Below are positions 73 to 12,652 of a DNA stretch of 12,652 bases, one piece after another. A model generated the notes under the pieces. The model did not search any database and was not told the DNA's origin. It saw only the letters and a list, made by a program, of their open reading frames with translations. Within the stretch, counting starts at the first letter, position 1. Each line of letters starts with the position of its first letter. Source of the DNA: a virus. Made by a program: the position numbers and the translations under genes. The stretch lies in the UHGV virus genome UHGV-0154273; one strand, written 5' to 3'.

Positions 73-834
73 GGAATCGGGCGGCGGCTCGTCTCTGACT
101 TTCTGGAAGCGAACCAAGATAAGTTTTCCCGCCAGACGCTGCAAAACTGGTTAACCTGCTTAGGGACGCTGTATGACTTCGCCCGGCGTAAATATGACAA
201 TATCGCCCCTGATAATCCCTTTCACGGCCACAATCTGGAAGCCCGCCAGACGAACGAAAGTTATCAACCTTTTGAACTACACCAGCTACAGGCATTAATA
301 AAAGAGGCAGGTAGCGAGATACGAGACGTAATCATAATCGGTTTGTATTCCGGTATGCGTCTCGACGAAATCGCCAGCATCAAACGAGTTGAGATTATCA
401 AAGTTGAAGGGGTACGCTGCTTCTACGTCAGCAAATCTAAAACTAAAGCGGGTGTAAGGCACGTCCCCATACACTCGCTGTTAATCAGCATCGTTGATAA
501 ATACCTTGCGCAGAACAACGGTGAATACCTGCTCCCCCAATCGAACAAGATTAAACGTGCCGACGGTAAGCGTGGCCCGTGGTACTCGCAGGCATTTACA
601 CGGCTACGCCGTCGCGTGCTGTCAGCGGCTACAGATCGCCAATGCTTCCACTCCCTGCGTGGTCACTTTATTACTTGCTTAGACAGAGCAGGAGTACCAG
701 AACAGCGCATAGGGGCAATAACCGGGCATACCGAACAAAAAGCTAAAACGGAAGCTTTCAGGACATATAGCAAGGGAGCAGGGATGAAAGAACTATGGGA
801 GTATGTGGAGTTGGTCAGTTATCCGTGTTTATAA
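73..834 (+). CDS. int: Tyrosine recombinase / phage-type integrase, 5'-truncated by the adapter junction (C-terminal ~254 aa present)
   Basis: Translation from 73 contains a core-binding-like region and a catalytic domain with conserved Arg (LYSGMRLDEI), HSLRGHF (His-x-x-Arg box) and a C-terminal GHTEQKAKTEAFRTYSKG with the candidate catalytic Tyr. The Met at 58 in the ORF track is encoded by adapter bases and is not a real start. Stop TAA at 832-834. Confidence 0.85.
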   Translation, partial: GIGRRLVSDFLEANQDKFSRQTLQNWLTCLGTLYDFARRKYDNIAPDNPFHGHNLEARQTNESYQPFELHQLQALIKEAGSEIRDVIIIGLYSGMRLDEIASIKRVEIIKVEGVRCFYVSKSKTKAGVRHVPIHSLLISIVDKYLAQNNGEYLLPQSNKIKRADGKRGPWYSQAFTRLRRRVLSAATDRQCFHSLRGHFITCLDRAGVPEQRIGAITGHTEQKAKTEAFRTYSKGAGMKELWEYVELVSYPCL

Positions 835-860
835 AAAAGGCGCTATAGCGCCTTTCTTTT
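833..860. terminator. Bidirectional intrinsic terminator between convergent integrase and 124-aa gene
   Basis: A-run (833-838), perfect palindromic hairpin GGCGCTATAGCGCC (839-852), T-rich run TTTCTTTT (853-860). Sits exactly between two convergent stop codons. Confidence 0.6.
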
Positions 861-1233
861 AAACATCAAAGATGACATCACCATGATACGCGTTAAACTG
901 CGGATTCCGCATGATGGTGATCACTTGCTGAACTACCCACTTTGCACCGATATCAAGTTCATGCTCTATAGCGCACGGTATAGCAATACCAGATTTCTGA
1001 CACTTGATAGTGAAGGAAAATCCCTCATCTTTGCCTAGAATTGTCTGCAAGTGTTGTCCAATGAAATTTGTAAAAATCACTCTCAACTCAGCTAACGTGA
1101 TTGGAGGTTTATTACGCGGATCATTAAGTCTATCAACAGCAAAATGAAATGACATCTTTAGCTTGGCTCTATCTTCTTCCAAGATATCGTTAATATCTGC
1201 AACTAAATCATCAATCTGCTGTTGAGTTATCAT
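859..1233 (-). CDS. Hypothetical protein, 124 aa; downstream gene of an AT-rich two-gene cassette (possible toxin/effector)
   Basis: ORF with ATGA start/stop overlap with the upstream 69-aa gene. Sampled 60-bp blocks are ~37-42% GC, lower than the rest of the element. No recognisable catalytic motif by eye. Confidence 0.55.
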   Translation of the reverse strand: MITQQQIDDLVADINDILEEDRAKLKMSFHFAVDRLNDPRNKPPITLAELRVIFTNFIGQHLQTILGKDEGFSFTIKCQKSGIAIPCAIEHELDIGAKWVVQQVITIMRNPQFNAYHGDVIFDV

Positions 1234-1439
1234 ATGTGTGCAGCCGTGATCTCAGCTAATTTCTTGTTCAACTCTTCATCGTTTGAAGCTGTGATGGTGC
1301 CTACAAATTCAGTGCGTGATAAAGTACCAGCACGCACATCGAATTCGTAGTTGTCAAACGAATCAACGACGACAAACGCCTTGGTTGCTGGGTTAAAAAA
1401 CGATGCACAATTTTGGTTTGTACGCATATCAAAGTTCAT
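1230..1439 (-). CDS. Hypothetical protein, 69 aa; upstream gene of the AT-rich two-gene cassette (possible antitoxin/partner)
   Basis: Strong SD (AGGAGGA) 4-5 nt before ATG at 1439. 4-bp overlap (ATGA) with the 124-aa gene indicates translational coupling. Confidence 0.6.
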   Translation of the reverse strand: MNFDMRTNQNCASFFNPATKAFVVVDSFDNYEFDVRAGTLSRTEFVGTITASNDEELNKKLAEITAAHI

Positions 1440-1536
1440 ATTATCCTCCTACCCCTTCAAGGGAGATGTAGGAACGAAGTATTCTCAAGTTGAAGCTCAG
1501 TTTGGAGACATATTAGGAAACTGTTTTATGCTCAGC

Positions 1537-1555
1537 CTACGCAATCTACGTCAAT
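1537..1555. promoter_or_regulatory. Tandem imperfect direct repeat CTACG(T)CAAT x2 in the upstream region of the 69/124-aa cassette; candidate operator
   Basis: ctacgcaat (1537-1545) followed by ctacgtcaat (1546-1555), ~100 bp upstream of the cassette start codon on the coding (minus) strand side. Confidence 0.25.
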
Positions 1556-1640
1556 CCGTCAAGAATTGTTTTAAATATAGGCAAGTAACAAGGCAGCCAC
1601 AACAACACATAACCGAATGAAAATAAAAGAAATAATCTCA

Positions 1641-2078
1641 TCACGCATGTTGTCTTGGATAAATAACGCCCAACCCCTTGTATTGTCGGCGGTAGGCAGG
1701 TAGCATGCTTAACATGCTACCTCGTGAGAGTCCGCACAAATTTCCCACATAATAACCACCTTCCGCTGCATTGGCCGAACGATGAACCACAGCGCGCACA
1801 CGTCCAGTTCGGTGACAGTGATCCAATACAGCAGACGCGAGGCGTAGCGGCTTAGCTGTCACCGCGCAGCGTCGGTATTGATAATTCCACAGGAAGACAC
1901 GGACAGCGGCCACATCAGCGCGGCGCAACTCCAGCCGTCCTGAACCATTCAACAGGAAGTGATACACATCATCGAACGCAGCAGAATTTTTAATGCGTTC
2001 CGCTAGCGGCATGTTGCCGAGATATTCCAGATAGCCTCGCATCGCTTTTCTTAGTAGTTGGTCTGTCCGTGTAACCAT
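1641..2078 (-). CDS. Hypothetical protein, 145 aa (last gene of long minus-strand operon)
   Basis: ATG at 2078 preceded by GGAGG SD at 8 nt spacing. Stop TGA 1641-1643. No recognisable domain. Confidence 0.6.
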   Translation of the reverse strand: MVTRTDQLLRKAMRGYLEYLGNMPLAERIKNSAAFDDVYHFLLNGSGRLELRRADVAAVRVFLWNYQYRRCAVTAKPLRLASAVLDHCHRTGRVRAVVHRSANAAEGGYYVGNLCGLSRGSMLSMLPAYRRQYKGLGVIYPRQHA

Positions 2079-2350
2079 GATTCAAAGCCTCCACTGTCAG
2101 ATGCAGCCCGTTTGCAGGCTTCGTATTCTTCGCGCTGGCGTTGGCATACCAGAGCATAAAGCTCGGCGGCCATCGCATTAACACGTTCGTCACTGATACC
2201 ATTGCGGCGCATCAGCCCCAGCAGCTTACGAAATTTAGCTTCAAGCTCAGGCTCTCCGGTATCCATTACCCACTGTTTCAGGTCAGCGAGTGCGCCAGTC
2301 ATTGGTGGCGGCTCGATGTACCGCCACCTTAATTTAATCGTGGTTATCAT
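2051..2350 (-). CDS. Hypothetical protein, ~99 aa (start refined relative to ORF track)
   Basis: ORF track start at 2398 is a TTG. In-frame ATG at 2350-2348 is preceded by AGAGGA SD at ~9 nt and gives MITTIKLRW... Overlaps the upstream gene stop by 17 nt and the downstream gene start by 28 nt. Confidence 0.5.
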   Translation of the reverse strand: MITTIKLRWRYIEPPPMTGALADLKQWVMDTGEPELEAKFRKLLGLMRRNGISDERVNAMAAELYALVCQRQREEYEACKRAASDSGGFESWLHGQTNY

Positions 2351-2759
2351 TTTCTTTATCCTCTCTGTAAGCCGGGTGCATTGCCCGGTATTGCTCAATG
2401 GTCAAACCCTCGCTGGCCGCTGCAAACCGTTCCTTTTGCTTACCCGCCAATCGCAAGGCGCTGTCTCTCCAGCAGAGCAGAAAGAAGATGGTCAGCACCT
2501 GCTTACTCAAGCCATCCAGAAGATCACCAAGCCCTTGCTCCAGAAGACAGGCACGCCATGCAGCGGCGTGCTCAGTCATAGCACCTACTATCGGGACAGG
2601 TGCTCCGAGCATTGTCGCAAGCTGACTCATAACACTGTTAGCATCGCCCGGATGCAGCCGTGGAATAGTCATGCGGCCAGCCTGCGCCAACAGTTCAGCG
2701 TACCGCTGGCGGCGCGGGTCATCATCTGCCAGCGCTCTAATCGGCTTTTCATCAGCCAT
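2334..2759 (-). CDS. Hypothetical protein, 141 aa (speculatively a small-terminase-like packaging factor given its HNH neighbour)
   Basis: ATG at 2759 with GGAGG SD 9 nt upstream. Lies immediately downstream of the HNH endonuclease gene. Function not recognisable from sequence. Confidence 0.55.
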   Translation of the reverse strand: MADEKPIRALADDDPRRQRYAELLAQAGRMTIPRLHPGDANSVMSQLATMLGAPVPIVGAMTEHAAAWRACLLEQGLGDLLDGLSKQVLTIFFLLCWRDSALRLAGKQKERFAAASEGLTIEQYRAMHPAYREDKENDNHD

Positions 2760-2777
2760 TAATGGAACCTCCGAGGA

Positions 2778-3305
2778 TTAGGCAGCCTGCAATAAATCGG
2801 CTGGCGTTGACGGATGGTATCTGGCTTTAGCTTTCAGGTACGCAGCACGCGCCGCCGCTTCGGTAGTGAATAAGCCGAGGTGATGGCGAACACCACCAAC
2901 GCGAATGTAAGCCTCCCATCTGCCAGAGCAGGCATGGTGGCTATAACCCTTGGCTTTGCGGTAATTGTGCTGGTTCTCTTGTGGCGTAACCGTGCGGAGA
3001 TTGATAAGGCGGTTGTCATCGCGTACCGCGTTGATATGGTCGATTTGCATCCCGGCAGGGATACCGTCATTAGCAATGATGAAGGCGACACGGTGGGCGT
3101 ATAGCGCATGAGATTTGCCATTGATGCGGACAGATACGCGCCTATATCCGGCGCTGTCCGTTACCGTGTCGGCCAGTTCCCCGGCTTTAGCGTAAATCCG
3201 CTTGTTGGCTCCGATCCGGTCTACTGCATGGAACAGGCGGCCAGTCTTCGCATCGTACCGAAACAAAGAGCGCAACAGCTCCGGGGCATAAGCATCAATA
3301 TTCAT
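2778..3305 (-). CDS. HNH endonuclease with C-terminal AP2-like DNA-binding domain (phage homing/packaging-associated type)
   Basis: HNH_3-type motif HRVAFIIANDGIPAGMQIDHINAVRDDNRLINLRTVTPQENQHN (His, Asn and His spacing typical of HNH). C-terminal GYSHHACSGRWEAYIRVGGVRHHLGLFTTEAAARAAY resembles the AP2 domain commonly fused to phage HNH nucleases. Confidence 0.85.
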   Translation of the reverse strand: MNIDAYAPELLRSLFRYDAKTGRLFHAVDRIGANKRIYAKAGELADTVTDSAGYRRVSVRINGKSHALYAHRVAFIIANDGIPAGMQIDHINAVRDDNRLINLRTVTPQENQHNYRKAKGYSHHACSGRWEAYIRVGGVRHHLGLFTTEAAARAAYLKAKARYHPSTPADLLQAA

Positions 3306-3321
3306 GGCTCGGCCCCTTTTG

Positions 3322-4317
3322 TTATGCAGCTTGTCGGAAATTTATAACGCAGTCAGGGCGGCGCAGCCCAACATTGAACAGGCGATATGAGTCCATCACC
3401 ATTGTCATTTCGCGTTCATCATCCCACTGGCGATTGATAACGCTCTGCGCTTCGACTGTCACAAGTACAGACGCAGGCCGGAACAGCGTCGCCCGTGTCA
3501 GCGCTTCCCCTGCGGTCACATCATAATCAGCGCCCAGTTCATGCGCGGTAATGGCTTCCTGCGGGTAACTGTTCAGCTCAATAACTCGCACCCCAGCGAC
3601 ATAGCCAACGCGACGCCATGCGTAATCATTGCCACTATCCCGGCTGTAACGGACGTTCATCAACTTCTTATGTTCCATCAGGATGCTGAACCAAGCTGGG
3701 TCGATGAGAAGGCACAGCTCCGCCACCGGAATATCTTTTTCAGTTAGGAATCGATTAACAGCAGCTTTAATAGCGTGAACCAGTTCGTTAGCCGCATCCT
3801 CTTCGCTCCCCGTTGTCAGGTCGAGCGAGACAACATTATCCGTCAGCGGGTTAAACGTTGGTTGCAACGTAGGCGGCGGTACAAAGTCAGTCGCTTTGAT
3901 TAGCTGGATAGTGTGCGCTTCGTCGTAGAACTTTGCATGGGCTGTCCCCATGTTGCGGCTCAGCTCTGCGCGAAAGGTGGGCGCTGTCCAGTCGTCTTGA
4001 TAGTCAATCGGGATGCGGATATAGCTCAGCGTATCCACAGAGATAATCAGCTTGTCCGACTTAACGGCGGTAGGCTCCAGCGATTGCCCTGCGGTTCTGC
4101 CCTTCACCTCCAGATCTCCGCTCAGGCGGTCTACACGATACTGATTACTGTTTTTCAGCGGCTTGTATGTGCTCAGCCCCTCGGCGAGAAACACGCTCTT
4201 TGCCTCAAGGCGGGTCTGAACGTCCCGGTCATACGCTTCAATGTGAATGTCGTTGTCAGCATCTACACCGCCCCAGTGCGGGCGGAATTGGTCAGGGGTA
4301 TAAACATTGTCAGTCAT
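3322..4317 (-). CDS. Conserved-looking 331-aa protein of unknown function; possibly structural (capsid-like), unverified
   Basis: Long clean ORF with GGGAG SD 8 nt upstream of ATG at 4317. No nucleotide-binding or nuclease motif seen. Sits between a Q/N-rich scaffold-like protein and the HNH endonuclease, a context typical of head/packaging modules. Product assignment is inference only. Confidence 0.7.
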   Translation of the reverse strand: MTDNVYTPDQFRPHWGGVDADNDIHIEAYDRDVQTRLEAKSVFLAEGLSTYKPLKNSNQYRVDRLSGDLEVKGRTAGQSLEPTAVKSDKLIISVDTLSYIRIPIDYQDDWTAPTFRAELSRNMGTAHAKFYDEAHTIQLIKATDFVPPPTLQPTFNPLTDNVVSLDLTTGSEEDAANELVHAIKAAVNRFLTEKDIPVAELCLLIDPAWFSILMEHKKLMNVRYSRDSGNDYAWRRVGYVAGVRVIELNSYPQEAITAHELGADYDVTAGEALTRATLFRPASVLVTVEAQSVINRQWDDEREMTMVMDSYRLFNVGLRRPDCVINFRQAA

Positions 4318-4385
4318 AGAAATAGCTCCCGCGCCAGCGTTAGCCAGCGCGATTTATGGAAAAGGGGAAAAGAGAATGGGATGAA

Positions 4386-4733
4386 TCAGGCAGCAGCTTT
4401 TTCAGCCGCGATCTCAAGAATCAGGCCGATAAGCGCGAAGGCAGGCCAATGGGGATTAAGCTCGTGCAGGTGCGCAACGCCCCCACCAAAAGCATCGCGC
4501 ATATCAGCACCAGAGATGCCCGCGCGTTTGGCCGCCCGGCGCAGCAATCGCAGCTCGGAGCCGGGAACATACGCCGAGGGCATACGCACGCCGAAGCGTG
4601 AGGCGAGCCGCCGCCAGTGCGCTTCGTCAGCAAAGTCCTGCTTAAGCTGGCTGGCGTTGGCTTTCCAGTGTTCAATCCTCGCGCTACGGGCAGCCCTAGC
4701 CGCTGCCACGTTTTCAGGTGTCAGTAAGGTCAT
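4386..4733 (-). CDS. Hypothetical protein, 115 aa, Arg/Ala-rich with hydrophobic C-terminus
   Basis: ORF in operon orientation. Weak SD. C-terminal WPAFALIGLILEIAAEKAAA could be a membrane or amphipathic segment. Confidence 0.5.
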   Translation of the reverse strand: MTLLTPENVAAARAARSARIEHWKANASQLKQDFADEAHWRRLASRFGVRMPSAYVPGSELRLLRRAAKRAGISGADMRDAFGGGVAHLHELNPHWPAFALIGLILEIAAEKAAA

Positions 4734-4812
4734 TGTCAGATCTCAATGCAAAGTGGGTTTATGTGTGGTGTTTGAGAGGTAATTTCGCGTTTTACAGGTG
4801 CAGGTATACGAA

Positions 4813-4832
4813 TGTACATCTGGCGATGTACA
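4813..4832. promoter_or_regulatory. Inverted repeat TGTACAT-N6-ATGTACA in intergenic gap between the 228-aa and 115-aa genes
   Basis: Perfect 7-bp arms (4813-4819 and 4826-4832) with a 6-nt spacer. No U-run follows on the coding strand, so a binding site or attenuator-like hairpin is more likely than a terminator. Confidence 0.3.
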
Positions 4833-4892
4833 ACGCGATTCAGGCTCTAAAACGTAAGGTTAAGACGTGGGGAAGACAGGACAGGCGATTGC

Positions 4893-5579
4893 TTAACGGC
4901 CAGCGCGTTTGCCAGCGGAGCGCTGCGCAACCAGAGCGCGGTATTGATCGTCGTACTGGCGATGGCCGGGGCCATACCCTGATTGCTGCGCCCACTGCGA
5001 AAGCTGATCATACGCTGCAATAAACTCAGCATGAGACATACCAACAGGTTGCGAGGCAGGCTGGCCGTATGGGTTCCCCTGTGATGGGACATAACCAGTC
5101 GCAGTGCCTGCGACCATACGCTCTTGCAGATAATGAACCGCCCGCTGCATCTGCGCAGGGTCGCCAGACATAACCATCCGTTCAAGGGTTGATTGCGTCC
5201 CGGCGTCGAGCGTGCCAGCGTACTGCAACATCGCGTCAACTGTCCCCTGCCCTAGCTGGCTTTCGACAGACTGGTGAAACTGCCCCATCAGCCCATGAAG
5301 TTCAGGAGTCAACTCAACAGTAGTGCCATCCTGTAATTGCAGCGTGTCGCCCACTTGCGCAGCAACATCAATCTGCTGGTCTTGCTGGTTGGCAAAGTTA
5401 CTTTCGTTCCAGCTTTGATTAATGTTCGCTGGCTGCGTTTTCAGGAAATCAGCATCAGGTGTTGTCTGGTCGAATCTGCTAGCGCCGTTGTCAGCGCCTA
5501 CAGGTGCGGCCATGTACGGCGATTGCTGCGGCGCAGTATCAGCGCCCGAAAGGTACGGATTAACATTCTGGTCAGCCAT
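4893..5579 (-). CDS. Q/N/G-rich low-complexity acidic protein, 228 aa (scaffold-, decoration- or mimic-like; function unknown)
   Basis: ATG at 5579 with AAGAGG SD ~10 nt upstream. Composition strongly biased to Gln, Asn, Gly, Asp and Thr, with predicted disorder. Immediately follows the stop of the upstream HTH gene. Confidence 0.65.
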   Translation of the reverse strand: MADQNVNPYLSGADTAPQQSPYMAAPVGADNGASRFDQTTPDADFLKTQPANINQSWNESNFANQQDQQIDVAAQVGDTLQLQDGTTVELTPELHGLMGQFHQSVESQLGQGTVDAMLQYAGTLDAGTQSTLERMVMSGDPAQMQRAVHYLQERMVAGTATGYVPSQGNPYGQPASQPVGMSHAEFIAAYDQLSQWAQQSGYGPGHRQYDDQYRALVAQRSAGKRAGR

Positions 5580-5581
5580 GA

Positions 5582-5821
5582 TTATGCAACCTCTTGTGAT
5601 GTAACTCGGCGATGTGCCAGTTCAAGTAAAAGCATGTGCGCGTGTACGCATCGGGCAGGAATCATCTTCTGTCCGTGGTACGCTTTGCCGAGATCTTGTC
5701 TGTCGATCTGGTACACATGAGCCAAATCGATTTGACGAAGATTCAAGGCTTCGGCAATGAATTTCAGTTGTTGCCCGCAATCAGCCGCGCGGCGTGGCTC
5801 CATTAAAATAATGGTGCTCAT
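5582..5821 (-). CDS. Putative small HTH (XRE/Cro-like) DNA-binding protein, ~79 aa (start refined)
   Basis: ORF track start at 5863 is a TTG. ATG at 5821 has GAGGA SD at 7-8 nt. Segment LKFIAEALNLRQIDLAHVYQIDRQDLGKAYHG has a helix-turn-helix-like pattern. Confidence 0.5.
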   Translation of the reverse strand: MSTIILMEPRRAADCGQQLKFIAEALNLRQIDLAHVYQIDRQDLGKAYHGQKMIPARCVHAHMLLLELAHRRVTSQEVA

Positions 5822-5835
5822 GAAATAATCCTCAG

Positions 5836-6069
5836 TTAGATAAGGCCATGACGACGCAACCAACGTCGCTCGCCAACGGAGCCACGCGGTCGCTGCCTTG
5901 GATTCTGGTTTGGTGCTTGGCCGGGATCAGTTCGCCCTTCCCCGGACAGGTTCTGTGTCAGCACATCCCAGCCGCGTGATTCAAACGGGGCGTATCCCTC
6001 GCGCTGTTCGTCAAGGTTCACATAGAGATCAGGGTTAACGGCAGGGTGCAGCGGTTCGTTCTCTGCCAT
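5836..6069 (-). CDS. Hypothetical protein, ~77 aa
   Basis: ATG at 6069 overlaps the upstream stop (TGATG). The track's extra N-terminal Met comes from a GTG at 6072. Confidence 0.45.
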   Translation of the reverse strand: MAENEPLHPAVNPDLYVNLDEQREGYAPFESRGWDVLTQNLSGEGRTDPGQAPNQNPRQRPRGSVGERRWLRRHGLI

Positions 6070-6632
6070 CACTTAGCCCCGAATCGCGTGTTAACGTCTT
6101 CCAAAATATCTGGATAAGACCACTTGCTACGCATCAGGCGCAGGACATGAGCAACAGCCTCAGCAGAGATCCCAAGCTCCCCAGCGATCTCGGTTTGTTT
6201 CCAGCCGAAGCGCTCCAGCTTGTGCATCTGATCGAGGTCGGCGCTCAACAGGCGGCGCATCGTCTGCGGTTTCTCAGGCTTTGCTTTAACTGCTTTCGGC
6301 ATCGGGTGGGTGTGGGCGTTGCTAAAGCGGGAATGGACGATAGCCAGCACAGTTTCAGGCCGAATTAGAAAATCGCGTGCAATGGCATGTGCAGTGTCCC
6401 AGTGGCCGCGCCCCGGTTTCCAGCGCTTACGGATGGCGTTGTATTCCTCCAGCGTAATAGCGGCTTCATCCCTCCACTGGTTGGCAAGGTCGGCTACATA
6501 AACGCCGCGCAGCACCGCGTCAACGTCCTCCGGGTCAAATCCGGTTGCAGCGACTACCTCTTCCACATTGCGAAGGTCGCGCTTAACGAGGGTATTGATG
6601 CGCTGGATATCGGTCAGGCTCAGAACTGTCAT
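6069..6632 (-). CDS. HTH-domain protein, 187 aa (C-terminal sigma-70 region-4/LuxR-like helix-turn-helix; regulator or small-terminase-like)
   Basis: C-terminal DLDQMHKLERFGWKQTEIAGELGISAEAVAHVLRLMR matches an HTH pattern. ATG at 6632 overlaps the stop of the upstream small ORF (ATGA). Confidence 0.6.
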   Translation of the reverse strand: MTVLSLTDIQRINTLVKRDLRNVEEVVAATGFDPEDVDAVLRGVYVADLANQWRDEAAITLEEYNAIRKRWKPGRGHWDTAHAIARDFLIRPETVLAIVHSRFSNAHTHPMPKAVKAKPEKPQTMRRLLSADLDQMHKLERFGWKQTEIAGELGISAEAVAHVLRLMRSKWSYPDILEDVNTRFGAK

Positions 6633-6805
6633 AAGGTAAAGTCTCCATCGAAATTGATTTGATCTTCAATCAGCGTGCGAATGAGTAGCAGGCTGGAAGC
6701 GGTGTGTGTTCCCGTCTTGCGGGCGCTTTCATACATGGCTCGTGCTGCGCTCTGATAGTTCGGCGGCAGGGTTGCAAACCATGCTCTAAACTCTGCGGGT
6801 GTCAT
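6629..6805 (-). CDS. Small ORF, 58 aa, not in the supplied ORF track (below its length cutoff)
   Basis: Translated by hand: MTPAEFRAWFATLPPNYQSAARAMYESARKTGTHTASSLLLIRTLIEDQINFDGDFTL. Its ATG (6805-6803) overlaps the TGA of the upstream 68-aa gene and its TGA overlaps the ATG of the 187-aa gene, fitting the coupled operon pattern. Confidence 0.4.
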   Translation of the reverse strand: MTPAEFRAWFATLPPNYQSAARAMYESARKTGTHTASSLLLIRTLIEDQINFDGDFTL

Positions 6806-7008
6806 TGCTCGTCATCCTCAAATACACGGTTAAATGACGTGTCCGGCGCTTCTACGGCATTGGCCTTAAGGAAGTTGACCGCACTGGATAACTCCGCTGC
6901 GGCCATGCGCGACTCACCAGCCTTGTCTTCCTCAAGGCGGCGGATTAGCGCCCCAAGAAGCAAGCCTTTCATTCGCCACGTTTCATTTTCAAACTCGGTT
7001 TTAGTCAT
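6802..7008 (-). CDS. Hypothetical protein, 68 aa
   Basis: ATG at 7008 lies within ATGACTAA, which also contains the stop of the upstream 145-aa gene. Confidence 0.5.
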   Translation of the reverse strand: MTKTEFENETWRMKGLLLGALIRRLEEDKAGESRMAAAELSSAVNFLKANAVEAPDTSFNRVFEDDEQ

Positions 7009-7438
7009 GCGGATTAACTCCTGTCAGCCCCATTACGCGCAGGTACTGGATTACTTCGGCGTGTACTGGTTTTGGTAAAAAGAGGCGACGCTGCACAGAT
7101 TGAAATATCTCGTCGCGCGTCTTGTTGGCAGGGTGAACAGTCCCATTAAAGACCTCACGAGCCATGCGATAGGTCGGCCAAAGACGAGCGCCATCCTCCC
7201 GGCGTCGGAATCTATTCAGCACAGCGGCCAGACATTCCCAAGGCTCACAGTGATTGAGCAGGCAATACCGCTGTAGCGGCGTACCAGCTTGGCGCAAGAT
7301 GGCCGCACGATTAAGAGTCTGGCGGTGGCGCTCAGCTAACCCATCGAAGGAATATCCGTTCAGGGCGAAGGCAAGTTGTGCGGTGACGAGCGCATCCGCA
7401 CGCGTAGCACGACGCTGCGCATGTTCGGTAACAGGCAT
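7001..7438 (-). CDS. Hypothetical protein, 145 aa
   Basis: ATG at 7438 with TGGAG SD ~8 nt upstream. Follows the helicase stop after a 38-nt gap. Confidence 0.6.
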   Translation of the reverse strand: MPVTEHAQRRATRADALVTAQLAFALNGYSFDGLAERHRQTLNRAAILRQAGTPLQRYCLLNHCEPWECLAAVLNRFRRREDGARLWPTYRMAREVFNGTVHPANKTRDEIFQSVQRRLFLPKPVHAEVIQYLRVMGLTGVNPHD

Positions 7439-7476
7439 ATGGATTAACTCCAGAGAATGAGGGGGAGCCTTTCGAC

Positions 7477-9321
7477 TCAGAGGTATTTAGCGATGTACTG
7501 CCAGTTGCAGTTTTCAGGGCGGTAGAAGTAAGCAAGCTCATCAGGCGCAGCATCCAGCGCCAGCGATGACCACAGCAGAAACGCGCGGGCAGGTTGACCA
7601 TCGCGCCCGGCTCGTCCAATCATCTGAATGAGGTCAGGCAGGTCATCAGGAATATATGTAACGATGACGTTGCGAATGTCTGGCACATCAGCCCCCAGCC
7701 CGAAGGCTTTAGTAGCAATCAGAATTGCGCCCGGCGTAGTGGCAAACCACTCAGCGTTTGCGTGGCGTTCTTCGTTACTCAAGTGCATCGTCTTCGAGTG
7801 ATATGGGCGCGCCCGGTCGCCTAAGAGTTTCAGGTACGCCCGCAACGTCTTAAGGTCATTGACGAGAATGAGCGTCTTCTCTTCTTTCGGCAGAGCCTCG
7901 ACCAGACCAATAGCCGCTCGGAAACGTTCGCGGCACTGTCTGACTGTCGTCAACTGGATATTTTCGCGAGCAACATCAGCACGGAATGTTACGTAATCAC
8001 CACGGCAGCCAAGCGACGCCATTAAACTGCGCTCATTTTCGCGTAGCAGCGTAGCCGTAAATACGCAGCGTTGAGCCGAAAGAAAGGCATGTTGTAGCGA
8101 GTGCTGCATGGCCTCGTAAGCGGGTCGGAAATCCCAGTCTTTAACCGTGTGCGCTTCGTCGATGATAAAACGATCAACGCCGTAAGCCATCAGCGCCGCG
8201 AAGACCTGACTCGACAGAACAAGATGCTCAGGTGAAACGACAGCAACACGGAACGCCCCGGCAGCCAGCCCCGCGAGTTGTTGAGCGTTGCGGTGCCTCG
8301 GCAACTTGTCACCGAATGCCACAGCGTGAACGCCAGCATCCCGCAACTGGCGGAGAATCTGGCGCTTTAGGGTATTAGTGGGAACCACGATTACAGACAG
8401 GCCAACGCCAGCGCGGGACTCATAAATCAATGGATAAGCGAAGGCGGCGGTCTTGCCATAACCCGTAGGCAGAACGGCCAGCACATCACTACCACGGGAG
8501 AAGATCGCATCAGCAACAGACAACTGCCCCGGCCTCCACTCCAGCCCATCGGGTGGCAACAGGCTAACGCGTGCGTTTCGGTCACAGCGAACCAGCGGGC
8601 GAAACTCATAAGAGGCTGTATTCAGTGACGGCACAGACGGCGACACTGCCAAGCCGTTTGGGTCACAATGATGATTTGTACTGTTAAATTTATCCTCGGT
8701 AGGTTTCGACTCTCCACACCACAATTGACGAAACTCCGCTGAGTCCCCGTAGCGTTTGAAATCTGAATTGCGCATCGCTTCCAGTTTATTCATGCCCCTG
8801 TTGATGCGGTGTATAGTCTTCTCATCACAAATCAGGAACTCGCGGCAGGCTTTGAGAAAAGCATTCTGCCCGGTTGTCGATGCCGAAACGGCGTGCTCGC
8901 GCGGTTTCAATGCGGCATCATCTACGCGAACACCGGGAAAATCAGGCGGCAGCGGGTCAGCATACCGAGCAGGCTTCTTGTTGAGCCACATTTCTATCTC
9001 AGCGCGTCGGCAATGAATTGCGTCACCGGGCTGGATGACTTGCCGCAACCCCGTGTCAGAGCGCTGTTTTTGCTTCTTCGGTTGAACACCATGCAGCGCT
9101 CGCCATTCCCGCAGGGTCATAGCGGAGCCATCAGCATTGTAATAAAACTCTTCGGTCTTCGTGTTGTATGCCGCCTTAACGGGTTTATGCTTTATCGGGC
9201 ATATCTTGGAACGCCGAATAACAATCCCGTCAGCGACCATTTGCTGTACATCTGCGTTTGCGGTATTGAGCGGGTCAGCGTCGGCAGCCTGCGCAAGCAA
9301 ACGGCGTAGGTTCGTTGGCAT
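7477..9321 (-). CDS. RecQ-family superfamily-2 DNA helicase (DEAH box) with an unrecognised ~280-aa N-terminal domain; likely replication helicase of the element
   Basis: Helicase motifs read directly: RPGQ (Q-motif-like), LPTGYGKTAAF (Walker A/motif I), SPEHL, IIDEAHTVKDWDFRPAY (DEAH motif II followed by the RecQ-typical aromatic-rich loop), FTATL (motif III), MIGRAGRDGQ (motif VI). No RQC/HRDC tail. ATG at 9321 with GGAGA SD 9 nt upstream. Confidence 0.9.
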   Translation of the reverse strand: MPTNLRRLLAQAADADPLNTANADVQQMVADGIVIRRSKICPIKHKPVKAAYNTKTEEFYYNADGSAMTLREWRALHGVQPKKQKQRSDTGLRQVIQPGDAIHCRRAEIEMWLNKKPARYADPLPPDFPGVRVDDAALKPREHAVSASTTGQNAFLKACREFLICDEKTIHRINRGMNKLEAMRNSDFKRYGDSAEFRQLWCGESKPTEDKFNSTNHHCDPNGLAVSPSVPSLNTASYEFRPLVRCDRNARVSLLPPDGLEWRPGQLSVADAIFSRGSDVLAVLPTGYGKTAAFAYPLIYESRAGVGLSVIVVPTNTLKRQILRQLRDAGVHAVAFGDKLPRHRNAQQLAGLAAGAFRVAVVSPEHLVLSSQVFAALMAYGVDRFIIDEAHTVKDWDFRPAYEAMQHSLQHAFLSAQRCVFTATLLRENERSLMASLGCRGDYVTFRADVARENIQLTTVRQCRERFRAAIGLVEALPKEEKTLILVNDLKTLRAYLKLLGDRARPYHSKTMHLSNEERHANAEWFATTPGAILIATKAFGLGADVPDIRNVIVTYIPDDLPDLIQMIGRAGRDGQPARAFLLWSSLALDAAPDELAYFYRPENCNWQYIAKYL

Positions 9322-9436
9322 GGTGAAATCTCCAAAATTAAGGTGAGTTTAGAACGAGGCGCAGGACGGCAGCGCCGAGCTGCCCGTAGAGAGAATTTCA
9401 TGTCAGCAGTGACGTTGAATGTTCTGTCCCTCTTTA

Positions 9437-9462
9437 GTAGTGACTTTCATGTAGGTCACTAC
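9437..9462. promoter_or_regulatory. Perfect 8-bp inverted repeat GTAGTGAC-N10-GTCACTAC upstream of the helicase operon; candidate operator
   Basis: Arms at 9437-9444 and 9455-9462, ~115-140 bp upstream of the helicase start codon on the coding-strand side. Confidence 0.35.
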
Positions 9463-9510
9463 GTATGCACAAGCGAGTGGTGTTCGTTTTGCCACAGTAG
9501 AAACTCTAAT

Positions 9511-9529
9511 TTGATTATTTTTTAATCAA
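9511..9529. promoter_or_regulatory. AT-rich inverted repeat TTGATTA-TTTTT-TAATCAA in helicase-recombinase intergenic region
   Basis: 7-bp arms (9511-9517 and 9523-9529) with a 5-nt T spacer, within an AT-rich stretch that may hold the operon promoter or an origin-like region. Confidence 0.25.
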
Positions 9530-10211
9530 CACCTTTGTAAGCCTTGCCCTGTCTGACTTGATGAATGATTTGCTGATAACTTTCAGTAGGTTTGTTGGGA
9601 TGCTGGGATGTAAGGGGTTATAAGCGGCATTGTGAGTACCATATCCCAATATAGTACCGTACCACTACTCTATCCCCGCCGCGTTGACTGCCTGGCAAGC
9701 ACGGTTGCGTGGAGGGCCGAGCATCACAGCGGGCGAAGGCCGGGAATGAGCCAAAGGCGATGGAGCGGGCTGGAGCATAGCGAGAAGCGCAGCCAGTGTA
9801 GAGCGAAAAGCGATAACACTGATTAGGAGAAGGGATGAAAGGGAAGAACCCTTTTCTGTACATGTATTTTAAATGCAACTTTAAAGGTAAAACGAAGGTG
9901 TTGCCCTGCTTCAAATCTAGCTGAGTGATTGGACAACACAGCCTTTGATCCCTTCCCCTGCCCCATCCCTCGAATTGTTCAGTGATAAATCACATTCACA
10001 ATCTGATCTTGATACTCATCGTCTGGCACGGCTAAAGCCCCGCCATCTCTTCATATCAAGAGCCGCAAGTAATACGGAAATACATTATAAATCATACCAT
10101 TACGAGATTAGGCATAACATAAATATCTGATATCAATACAAAAGCTGTAGGCCATCCATCACCCACAGCCCAGTAACGGCCAGTGCTGGCATCTCATCAG
10201 ACTGTAGGTCA

Positions 10212-10844
10212 TCACTCTGTAACGCTGGCGGACAGCTCACGTTTGATACGGTAGAACGTTGCCCGGCTTATCCCGGCAGCTTTCATGATGTGCTCTGGTT
10301 TATTCCCAACGGTAAGCATAGCGCGGACAGTTTCACGGGCGCTCTCATCCTTAGACTTCCCGTTATATTTCCCCTCGGCTTTGGCACGCTTGATGCCCTG
10401 CGCTTGGCGTGCTCTGCGTGTCTCGTAGTCCACTCGTGCCATCGTAGCGAGGATATCAATCAGCATTGCGTTAACAGCTCTCAGGATGCCCTCTGTAAGC
10501 TCTGACGCCGTATCGTTCAGTAGTTGCCATGAGGTTGGCAGGTCAACGGCAACGATCACCAGTCCCTTATCCTGAATCCTCTGTTTCAGTGTCGCCCATT
10601 CCTTTTGCGTAAGGCGGCTTAGCCTGTCGATGCTCTCGACAAGCAAGACCTCTCCGGCCTGCGCATCATCCAGCAAGCGCATTAGTTCAGGACGCGCCAG
10701 CCTCGCACCGCTGGCGTTCTCGATGTACTCCGCCCGTACAGGCCAGCCCCGATCACTGGCGAACTCTCGCAGCAAGCCCAGCGCCCGGTCTGCGTGTTGC
10801 TCTGATGTACTGGCGCGGCAATAGATAAGCGCATTGTGTGCCAT
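10212..10844 (-). CDS. Serine recombinase of the resolvase/invertase family, 210 aa
   Basis: N-terminal catalytic region with YCRASTSEQ (Ser nucleophile motif), RPELMRLL and LLVESIDRLSR, which parallel Hin/resolvase motifs. C-terminal HTH (KAAGISRATFYRIKREL). ATG at 10844 with G-rich SD. Confidence 0.85.
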   Translation of the reverse strand: MAHNALIYCRASTSEQHADRALGLLREFASDRGWPVRAEYIENASGARLARPELMRLLDDAQAGEVLLVESIDRLSRLTQKEWATLKQRIQDKGLVIVAVDLPTSWQLLNDTASELTEGILRAVNAMLIDILATMARVDYETRRARQAQGIKRAKAEGKYNGKSKDESARETVRAMLTVGNKPEHIMKAAGISRATFYRIKRELSASVTE

Positions 10845-10970
10845 GCTTCCCCCTAAGTCTCAATGAAATATCACAGCAAGACCTATAAGAGATCACATCA
10901 ATAATGTGTAGTCAATAGAGTTTTATAGATAGTCAAATGAGACAGTGTGTCTATGTCTTTATCAGGTATA
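10845..10970. promoter_or_regulatory. Candidate res-like / autoregulatory region upstream of the serine recombinase gene
   Basis: Short repeats directly upstream of the recombinase start: direct repeats TAGTCAAT (10909-10916) and TAGTCAAAT (10930-10938), palindrome AGACA-GTG-TGTCT (10940-10952), repeated ATCACA motifs (10870-10900). By analogy with Tn3-family res sites lying just upstream of tnpR; inference only. Confidence 0.25.
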
Positions 10971-11561
10971 CCCGAAAGAGACTGGCACCGCCCCACAGCA
11001 GCATTCCCCGGCACATCCAGCGAACACAGCGTAGAGCGCACGCAGCAGATCAGCACGGCACCGCCACGATCTCGAAATCACAAAGGCATTGAATCACACA
11101 TTGGAAGCACAGAACGCAGCACAGAGCGATACAGATCGTTTTAGAGGGATGTACAGATACACAGTGAAAGGCAGATGATCGCAGCACTCGTCCCACACGG
11201 TTATTCAGCAACAGCAATCAGCCAGCATCTCGCTCAGTAGCACGCTCCTGTAATGCTTGTCTCGGATGAGCAAAATCTTAGGGTTTCTCAGCGACCCCTG
11301 ACGCGCGGGCACGCACATGCACACGGGGGCGCGGGCGAGCTATAGAGTTGAGGGAGGGGCAACCATAAGCGTGCAATTTTCAAGCTGGGACTTTTAACAG
11401 TGGGATTGTGGGGCTGTTTTGCATTCAGAGAGTGAGGCTGTGGGGGAGCCCTCCTTGAACCAAATAATGCGAAACTGATCATTCTTCCACGTAGCTTAGG
11501 CCACTTTGCATGGATAATTAGCACCAAACACAGCAGCCAGTTTAAGAGAAATGCGCGACAT

Positions 11562-11780
11562 CTACCGTCTGCGTTTACCCCAGCGCTGCATTATGGCTCT
11601 GTGTGCTTCATCCGCTGACCATTCAATAGGTACAACAACGTGTACAGGCATTTCATCGCCAGAGGGGGCACCACGTAAATGGACTCTATACCCTAGTTTA
11701 TTAAGTTCTACCTCGGACATCGGTGATATAACCTCGCCGCTATGGCTGCCGCCAACAAACTCAGCTTTAAAATCCAACAT
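11562..11780 (-). CDS. Hypothetical protein, 72 aa
   Basis: ORF whose ATG (11780-11778) is preceded, 1 nt away, by a 9-nt homopolymeric G tract on the coding strand. The plus-strand ORF 11551-11874 covers the same DNA; the minus strand is preferred because of operon orientation but this is uncertain. Confidence 0.4.
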   Translation of the reverse strand: MLDFKAEFVGGSHSGEVISPMSEVELNKLGYRVHLRGAPSGDEMPVHVVVPIEWSADEAHRAIMQRWGKRRR

Positions 11781-11781
11781 G

Positions 11782-11790
11782 CCCCCCCCC
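11782..11790. repeat. Homopolymeric tract C9 (G9 on coding strand) abutting the start codon of the 72-aa gene
   Basis: Nine consecutive C at 11782-11790. Potential slipped-strand phase-variation site or assembly-error hotspot. Confidence 0.9.
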
Positions 11791-11823
11791 TACACACTAA
11801 CAAGAATCATTGAAGGTGTATCA

Positions 11824-11841
11824 CCCAGCAACTACGCTGGG
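11824..11841. promoter_or_regulatory. Hairpin-forming inverted repeat CCCAGC-N6-GCTGGG between the 153-aa and 72-aa genes
   Basis: 6-bp arms (11824-11829 and 11836-11841). No immediate U-run, so terminator function is uncertain. Confidence 0.25.
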
Positions 11842-11870
11842 CAGAACATCACCTCGGACTATCAATCAAC

Positions 11871-12329
11871 TTAGTATCGCTTTGTGTCTCGTAGTATTAC
11901 AGACAGTAACCACCACCATTGGCGTTTGATCCAACAAACATCACTGAACATCTTGCCGTCAGATGTTTTGATATAAACCCCGCCACGATGATGCACTTTG
12001 TTGTGATGAGCCTTATTTATGAATGGCACGTTCAAGACCATTTCGTCTCGTGCTTTCAATCTTTTTGGCAGCATCGGTGTGATCATGTTCTCGTCCGAAT
12101 ATTCGTCGGATAACATTCTAAGGCGTCCACTGGCTGTTACCACACCGGCTGCACTCAACGTTACATCGTGTGCGCTTATGTTCGAAACGTATATCCTGTC
12201 CTCGTGCTGATCACATCCGAGATAAAGCCTTAGCGATGTTCTGGATTTTAGTAATTGAAATACGGACAAAGCAAAACCCGCCCACGCCGCGATCCCTGTC
12301 CAGTTATCTGTTTGGGTGATCCAAGTCAT
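11871..12329 (-). CDS. Predicted membrane-anchored protein, ~152 aa (N-terminal transmembrane helix), in AT-rich cassette
   Basis: ATG at 12329 overlaps the stop of the upstream 75-aa gene (TGATG); the track's start at 12332 is a TTG. N-terminal hydrophobic segment WTGIAAWAGFALSVFQLL. Sampled blocks ~37-40% GC. Confidence 0.6.
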   Translation of the reverse strand: MTWITQTDNWTGIAAWAGFALSVFQLLKSRTSLRLYLGCDQHEDRIYVSNISAHDVTLSAAGVVTASGRLRMLSDEYSDENMITPMLPKRLKARDEMVLNVPFINKAHHNKVHHRGGVYIKTSDGKMFSDVCWIKRQWWWLLSVILRDTKRY

Positions 12330-12556
12330 CAAGGCTGCATCCCCTTCGACATAAGATACTTAACGATCCCTTCTCGTTGCCTATTACTCAGCTGAAAACA
12401 TTTGTCTAGTTGAGATAAAACCTGCTCGACATCATCTGCCAAGATGGCACTAGCTGCACGAGCGGGGAGATCTCCCTGAATTTTGATAGTGAAATACCCT
12501 GAAGATATTGATAGCTTCAAAAAACAACCTGCTGAGAACTCGTAACTCTCGCTCAT
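12329..12556 (-). CDS. Hypothetical protein, 75 aa, first gene of right-end AT-rich cassette
   Basis: ATG at 12556 with AGAGG SD 7 nt upstream. Its promoter would have to lie beyond the compositional junction at ~12557-12571. Confidence 0.5.
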   Translation of the reverse strand: MSESYEFSAGCFLKLSISSGYFTIKIQGDLPARAASAILADDVEQVLSQLDKCFQLSNRQREGIVKYLMSKGMQP

Positions 12557-12571
12557 AACCGCCTCTGTTGA

Positions 12572-12652
12572 CAGTTCGGCGAGCGCATTGCCGACGGCCG
12601 CACGCGTGTGTACCTGGTCAACACCGGCTGGATCGGCGGCGGCTACGGCGTG
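12572..12652 (+). pseudogene. pckA: Internal fragment of an ATP-dependent phosphoenolpyruvate carboxykinase (PckA)-like gene from a high-GC genome; truncated on both sides
   Basis: In-frame translation QFGERIADGRTRVYLVNTGWIGGGYGV contains the YLVNTGW-GG-YG signature of the PckA kinase region. An in-frame TGA lies immediately upstream (12569-12571). The fragment is ~68% GC with G/C-rich third positions, unlike the rest of the window. Confidence 0.45.

Follow-up and report, generated by a model that had tools for sequence, protein, structure and literature searches.

The closest described system to the locus analysed here is KreTA, a toxin-antitoxin (TA) pair named by Odai et al. ('The Viral AlphaFold Database...', bioRxiv May 2025; Sci Adv 2025;11:eadz8560; PMC12487901). 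In that work, the proteins WP_000632671.1 (kreT) and WP_001008346.1 (kreA) were cloned, and E. coli BW25113 was poisoned by KreT and rescued by co-expressed KreA. The toxin selectively blocked the incorporation of 3H-methionine, i.e. translation, and an AlphaFold dimer displayed the predicted RNase site covered by KreA, for which a loose resemblance to the TriTu immunity protein was also reported. KreTA homologues were found across Gammaproteobacteria, with no viral relatives detected by sequence in the database of the same paper (VAD), and phage-challenge terms are absent from its text. On the structural side, the phage T4 RNase RegB acts in the control of phage gene expression, depends on the ribosomal protein S1, cuts at GGAG and has two reported catalytic histidines, H48 and H68. 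Finally, the PBECR RNase domains are deployed in polyvalent phage proteins (Iyer et al. 2017; PMC5512222).

The stretch of DNA under study (hereafter the window) comes from the UHGV virus genome UHGV-0154273 and comprises 12,652 nucleotides. Its positions 800-1700 are 100% identical to the E. coli chromosome NZ_LR536431.1, where the corresponding pair of coding sequences is WP_000632671.1 and WP_001008346.1, both annotated as hypothetical. The window translations are identical to these two proteins: the toxin has the sequence of KreT, and the antitoxin is KreA, encoded directly upstream in a bicistronic unit. There is thus little doubt in our view that the cassette is a KreTA type II TA system and that it occupies, as low-GC cargo, the integrase-proximal position of a small integrative island that encodes a capsid. 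A reading made from the sequence alone (the sequence-only reading) had proposed a novel TA or defence module and suggested expressing the 124-aa gene either alone or together with the 69-aa gene. The corresponding experiment is already in the literature with a positive outcome, since toxicity and rescue were published for the identical proteins (PMC12487901), and these toxicity data rule out ordinary phage structural or regulatory genes. The TA part of the proposal is thereby borne out, whereas the module is no longer novel, given that the name and the validation, obtained with these exact sequences, date from 2025. The impression that neither protein carries a motif assignable to a known family holds: Pfam (E<=1), PADLOC (PADLOC-DB v2, E<=1) and NCBIfam returned no match for KreT or KreA, and PHROGs places both in families of unknown function (phrog_14630 and phrog_14518). 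A RelE/ParE-family TA system was discarded in the same way, as no family model matches. The practical outcome is one of annotation, both proteins being either devoid of a model or 'hypothetical' in Pfam, NCBIfam, PADLOC and RefSeq.

The cassette and its putative signals are organized as follows (window coordinates):

836 to 855, no strand assigned: bidirectional intrinsic-terminator-like hairpin between the integrase stop (834) and the kreT stop (859), from folding.
859 to 1233, minus strand: kreT, toxin of 124 aa, predicted endoribonuclease with a RegB-like fold.
1230 to 1233, minus strand: ATGA shared by the stop of kreA and the start of kreT, with putative translational coupling, from the sequence (tcat on the plus strand).
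1230 to 1439, minus strand: kreA, antitoxin of 69 aa, modelled as four beta-strands and a C-terminal helix.
1445 to 1450, minus strand: Shine-Dalgarno AGGAGG, 5 nt 5' of the kreA ATG, from the sequence (CCTCCT on the plus strand).
1534 to 1562, minus strand: putative promoter-like element, with -35 TTGACG (1557-1562), a 17-nt spacer and -10-like TAGGCT (1534-1539), read by eye.
1537 to 1555, no strand assigned: short imperfect tandem repeat, CTACGCAAT / CTACGTCAAT, within the putative promoter spacer, visible in the sequence.

Both ORFs and the ATGA overlap are present as first described, and in homologous kreA/kreT loci the two genes likewise overlap by these 4 nt, or else overlap slightly or are separated by a short gap. 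Similarly, AGGAGG or GGAGG precedes kreA in two of these loci (L004 and L005). The pair is convergent with the integrase gene (stop codon at 832-834), from which it is separated by a gap of 24 nt that is nearly filled by the hairpin at 836-855, GGCGC-TATA-GCGCC extended by AAA/TTT and bordered by an A-tract and, on the opposite side, by a T-tract. Folding gave -16.8 kcal/mol for the plus strand and -19.9 kcal/mol for the minus strand (z of -5.7 and -6.6, respectively), and none of 200 shuffled sequences folded as well. A consensus terminator scan missed this element, probably as the T-run becomes part of the extended stem. Since the hairpin folds strongly on both strands, a bidirectional terminator shared by int and kreTA, as put forward in the sequence-only reading, is plausible. 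The cassette also stands out by its composition, with 39.4% GC (859-1640) versus 53.0% in the remainder of the window; the lowest value of any other 782-nt window is 45.3% (mean 53.4, sd 2.9), in agreement with the low GC content initially noticed.

Upstream of kreA, promoter-like elements in a similar position were also read by eye in L005 (TTGACT-17-TAGCCT) and L004 (TTGACG-16-TAGAAT), while a consensus promoter scan reported no promoter on the kreTA strand. Taken together, a promoter may lie at 1534-1562. The tandem direct repeats at 1537-1555, initially proposed to be of the kind used by autoregulated TA operators, are present, but as two imperfect units of 9/10 nt (CTACGCAAT and CTACGTCAAT) distinguished by an indel. 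They are absent from the output of TRF at score 30 and from a general repeat search of the window, and a comparable event occurred in 35 of 2000 shuffles in a post-hoc word test. KreA, whose model folds as a beta-meander and a helix with generic structural matches only, displays no recognizable DNA-binding domain (Pfam, fold model and structural matches considered), and an AbrB/MazE-type DNA binder was rejected since the order of the secondary-structure elements does not match. Classical autoregulation by the antitoxin is therefore not evident, and the operator proposal is not supported by such a weak repeat; at best, 1537-1555 might be a candidate operator.

The cassette is inserted in an island of ~14 kb (window 73-12576; L001 13953-27631), with one end near a tRNA-Gly gene. 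Besides the integrase, the island encodes an endonuclease VII-like protein, an HNH nuclease, a major head protein (phrog_267), a scaffold-like protein, a RecQ-like helicase and a serine recombinase, and neither a portal nor a terminase was recognized in it. On the basis of this gene content, the island looks like a capsid-encoding phage satellite, which to our knowledge has no obvious fit to the P4, PICI or cf-PICI gene sets. On the reference chromosome (L001 12447-13810), an IS1A and a truncated aromatic amino-acid transporter gene are located directly upstream of the island integrase, indicating that this end of the island has been rearranged.

Some features of the window relate to its assembly. 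Positions 1-72 correspond to an Illumina TruSeq index adapter (a T-run, CAAGCAGAAGACGGCATACGAGAT, the index CGTGAT, then GTGACTGGAGTTCAGACGTGTGCTCTTCCGATCT), which replaces the genomic sequence, the homology to the E. coli chromosome starting at 72-73. Consequently, the 258-aa 'integrase ORF' (GTG at 58) begins with residues that are an assembly artefact; the real protein is a tyrosine integrase of 360 aa. Further downstream, NZ_LR536431.1, otherwise 99.99% identical, lacks a 549-bp segment (9709-10257) that occurs only once in the window. The junction of this segment falls within the gene of the serine recombinase/invertase (10212-10844, minus strand), at its 3' end, and changes the C-terminus of the protein; the segment may represent an indel, or a variable segment associated with the recombinase. 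At the other extremity, the last 76 bases (12577-12652) have no match in NZ_LR536431.1, while the preceding 2.3 kb match at 99.96%, which may mean that the junction differs or that the contig end is chimeric.

The island backbone was found in 59 of 5426 complete E. coli genomes, of which only one carries kreTA. Three sister islands hold other cargo between the integrase and endonuclease VII genes:

L099, 3205 to 3678: YafO-family toxin (strain A16).
L100, 2954 to 3856: AbiTii abortive-infection protein (derivative of EPEC E2348/69).
L101, 3203 to 3847: hypothetical protein of 214 aa.

The integrase-proximal slot is a variable cargo position. This result, together with the low GC content, agrees with the separate acquisition of the cassette as suggested by the sequence-only reading, and the nature of the cargo fits its view of integrase-proximal positions as hotspots for defence and TA genes. 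The presence of AbiTii and YafO in the same slot makes an anti-phage role of kreTA plausible by analogy, and a phage-defence assay of KreTA reasonable. Judging from this context, the biological role of the pair would most likely be an abortive-infection-type defence and/or the stabilization of the island. A more restrictive possibility is that KreTA acts purely as an addiction module, which stabilizes the island or prophage by post-segregational killing and has no anti-phage function. Its location beside an integrase gene, in an element able to excise, would suit such a role, as would the lack of a published defence phenotype and of a PADLOC model. However, a bona fide abortive-infection gene (AbiTii) at the same slot points to a hotspot for defence cargo, and many prophage-borne type II TA systems are now known to defend against phages. 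We thus regard addiction as the sole function of KreTA as unlikely.

Concerning the toxin itself, the predicted structure of KreT consists of helices on a four-stranded antiparallel sheet that can be superimposed on RegB or RelE. The best structural match is an mRNA endonuclease and spans KreT almost entirely, and a Foldseek search of BFVD retrieved a RegB-annotated protein at E 3.6e-5; for KreA, the matches were the TriX and TriTu immunity proteins, and these were weak. In an alignment of 125 KreT-like domains, no or hardly any variation is seen at H30, R40, N41, T106 and R109, and E49, R35, N37, D38, P86, M108, K/N110 and F113 are nearly invariant. Such a His/Glu/Arg/Thr set has the look of a metal-independent RNase active site, as in barnase/RNase T1-type catalysis. 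At the sequence level, hhalign of the KreT family profile against T4 RegB gave a probability of 2%, which is not significant, and the sole aligned segment is a short HxxDR match that places KreT H30/R35 on RegB H48/R52. Since this alignment is not significant, we claim a shared fold and a short motif and not sequence homology, and the H30/R35 correspondence should be taken as a lead. The family alignment displays no second conserved histidine that would match RegB H68. Moreover, KreT matched none of the RegB or RelE/ParE models of Pfam at E<=1, and the broad KreT alignment, used as a profile against PDB sequences, retrieved chance-level matches only.

These data suggest the following working model. 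kreA and kreT are probably co-transcribed from a promoter that would be located ~95-125 nt upstream of kreA, and their translation would be coupled through the ATGA overlap. When free, KreT shuts down translation and causes growth arrest, as published for the identical proteins. Fold and conservation indicate that KreT is most probably a metal-independent endoribonuclease of the RegB/RelE (BECR) type, for which H30 with R35/R40, E49, T106 and R109 are likely catalytic candidates. Neutralization by KreA, itself published, would probably proceed through direct 1:1 binding over the active site, as in the published AlphaFold dimer, and KreA might be labile. We find a toxin that relies on H30 and is inhibited by occlusion of its active site to be a reasonable view of the system, and the conserved KreT residues are direct targets for mutagenesis. 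Alternatively, KreT could block translation without cutting mRNA, either by binding to the ribosome or a translation factor or by cleaving or modifying tRNA or rRNA, with the RegB-like fold serving as a scaffold. Indeed, the effect of KreT reported experimentally is translation inhibition only, and the second RegB catalytic histidine has no equivalent in the toxin. Yet this option has to be weighed against the conserved residue set, so similar to a metal-independent RNase active site, and against the nearly full-length match to an mRNA endonuclease; we hold it to be quite unlikely.

The distribution of the module was investigated at several levels. With the cassette as query, megablast returned nothing from 50,697 phage records, and a word-indexed protein search found just 6 and 12 close relatives for the two proteins. 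In contrast, tblastn revealed the kreTA pair, at ~55% identity, in two unannotated GenBank genomes of Uetakevirus (epsilon15-like phages). A RefSeq-based survey may have missed these pairs because both GenBank records are flagged UNVERIFIED and are unannotated. In both genomes (L002 13154-15481; L003 6818-8617), kreTA is located downstream of an antirepressor-like gene of 241-279 aa and is followed by a small ORF with a signal-peptide-like N-terminus (MKKA..LSL..TQAFAG); the region has the appearance of a moron-like accessory region and adjoins tail and injection genes. GTDB genomes and IMG/VR were also scanned for the linkage between both genes, yielding 97 loci. A KreA homologue is present immediately upstream and on the same strand in all 48 loci with a standalone KreT (~121-129 aa), and in none of the 49 more distant KreT-like loci. 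The paired loci include Enterobacterales (Yersinia, Proteus, Klebsiella, Pantoea, Erwinia and Rahnella), a Pseudomonas plasmid, Martelella, Pseudoduganella and Thioploca, with alpha- and betaproteobacteria represented, as well as many viral contigs of 38-56 kb (IMG/VR prophages). On plasmid p1 of Pseudomonas silvicola (L010 3757-4270), a kreA-like ORF of 58 aa is next to a kreT-like ORF of 151 aa whose N-terminus weakly matches KreA, which suggests that this copy is frameshifted or fused.

The occurrence of the pair in complete temperate Uetakevirus genomes, close to an antirepressor-like gene, is relevant to another interpretation. Like T4 RegB, KreT could be a life-cycle RNase that cuts specific mRNAs of the host or of the element after induction or infection, KreA being a timing regulator that keeps it inactive in the lysogen. 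RegB, the nearest structural relative, does work in the control of phage gene expression, and KreT-like domains without KreA in large multidomain phage proteins (see below) look like an offensive use comparable to that of PBECR domains. On the other hand, the cassette behaves like a moron, given its own strong Shine-Dalgarno, promoter-like site and terminator, its orientation against the integrase gene and its foreign GC content. Antitoxin and toxin are strictly paired, in the gene order (antitoxin before toxin) that is classical for type II systems, and sister islands carry AbiTii or a YafO toxin at the same slot. [quoted passage not shown]

The family extends well beyond the standalone toxins. 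An exhaustive HMM search recovered 364 KreT-like cluster representatives at E<=1e-3, many of which lie within proteins of 200-1300 aa and are widespread in environmental phages. Fused partners include cytidylyltransferase-like, DUF5824, zeta-toxin/AAA_33, DUF3008 and InPase domains, with no Pfam model over the KreT-like part. Consistently, the best Foldseek matches of KreT in BFVD are multidomain phage proteins, e.g. a 602-aa protein of Sinorhizobium phage phiM12. The range of KreTA and KreT-like domains is thus larger than described in PMC12487901, with the addition of Uetakevirus, IMG/VR contigs, alpha- and betaproteobacteria, and fused domains in many phages. A 3359-aa LapA/BapA adhesin (P0065) that emerged as a KreT-like relative was dismissed as a repeat artefact on account of its weak per-domain E-values.

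Among the IMG/VR loci (L049-L097), phage ORFs of 850-1300 aa combine cytidylyltransferase-like, DUF5824, KreT-like and zeta-toxin/AAA_33 kinase-like domains. Three examples of such giant KreT-like ORFs, with no KreA homologue nearby, are:

L050, 1007 to 4348.
L081, 1961 to 5755.
L087, 919 to 4830.

From their domain composition, these ORFs look like polyvalent effectors with an undescribed RegB-like RNase module. The Pfam models PBECR1-5 match neither KreT nor any of its 72 fused or multidomain relatives, among which MuF_C gave one sub-threshold match (E 0.006, protein P0058). The KreT-like domain is far commoner in phages than PMC12487901 indicates, and through it a TA toxin is connected with both T4 RegB and the polyvalent effectors of phages. 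A broader scenario would be that KreT is the domesticated, antitoxin-controlled form of a much larger, undescribed family of RegB-like RNase domains found in giant proteins of environmental phages, and that in Enterobacterales KreTA is anti-phage abortive-infection cargo, exchangeable with AbiTii and YafO in the integrase-proximal hotspot of a family of capsid-encoding satellites. We propose this scenario tentatively, as a possibility that still has the odds against it. As a further possibility, KreA-like proteins could neutralize the KreT-like effectors of incoming phages.

To conclude, the locus can be placed among the known systems as follows. In comparison with T4 RegB (PDB 2hx6), KreT is shorter (124 versus 153 aa), displays no significant sequence homology and has no conserved equivalent of the catalytic H68. 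RegB has no known antitoxin, whereas standalone KreT is always paired with KreA. With respect to the BECR-fold toxins RelE, HigB, YafQ and YoeB, no Pfam family of this superfamily matches KreT, which possesses an extra N-terminal helix in common with RegB, and KreA differs from the antitoxins of RelE/ParE-superfamily systems in having no RHH, HTH, Phd or AbrB-type DNA-binding domain. Like the PBECR domains (PMC5512222), KreT-like domains occur both alone and within very large multidomain phage proteins, and the likeness in deployment extends to their partners, which are nucleotidyltransferase-like, zeta-toxin/AAA_33 kinase-like and InPase domains. The closest system remains KreTA, with which the cassette shares the two-gene arrangement, identical proteins and a prophage-like setting in which an integrase and a capsid gene are present. 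The carrier is here a satellite-like island of ~14 kb instead of a full prophage, but the module itself is no different.
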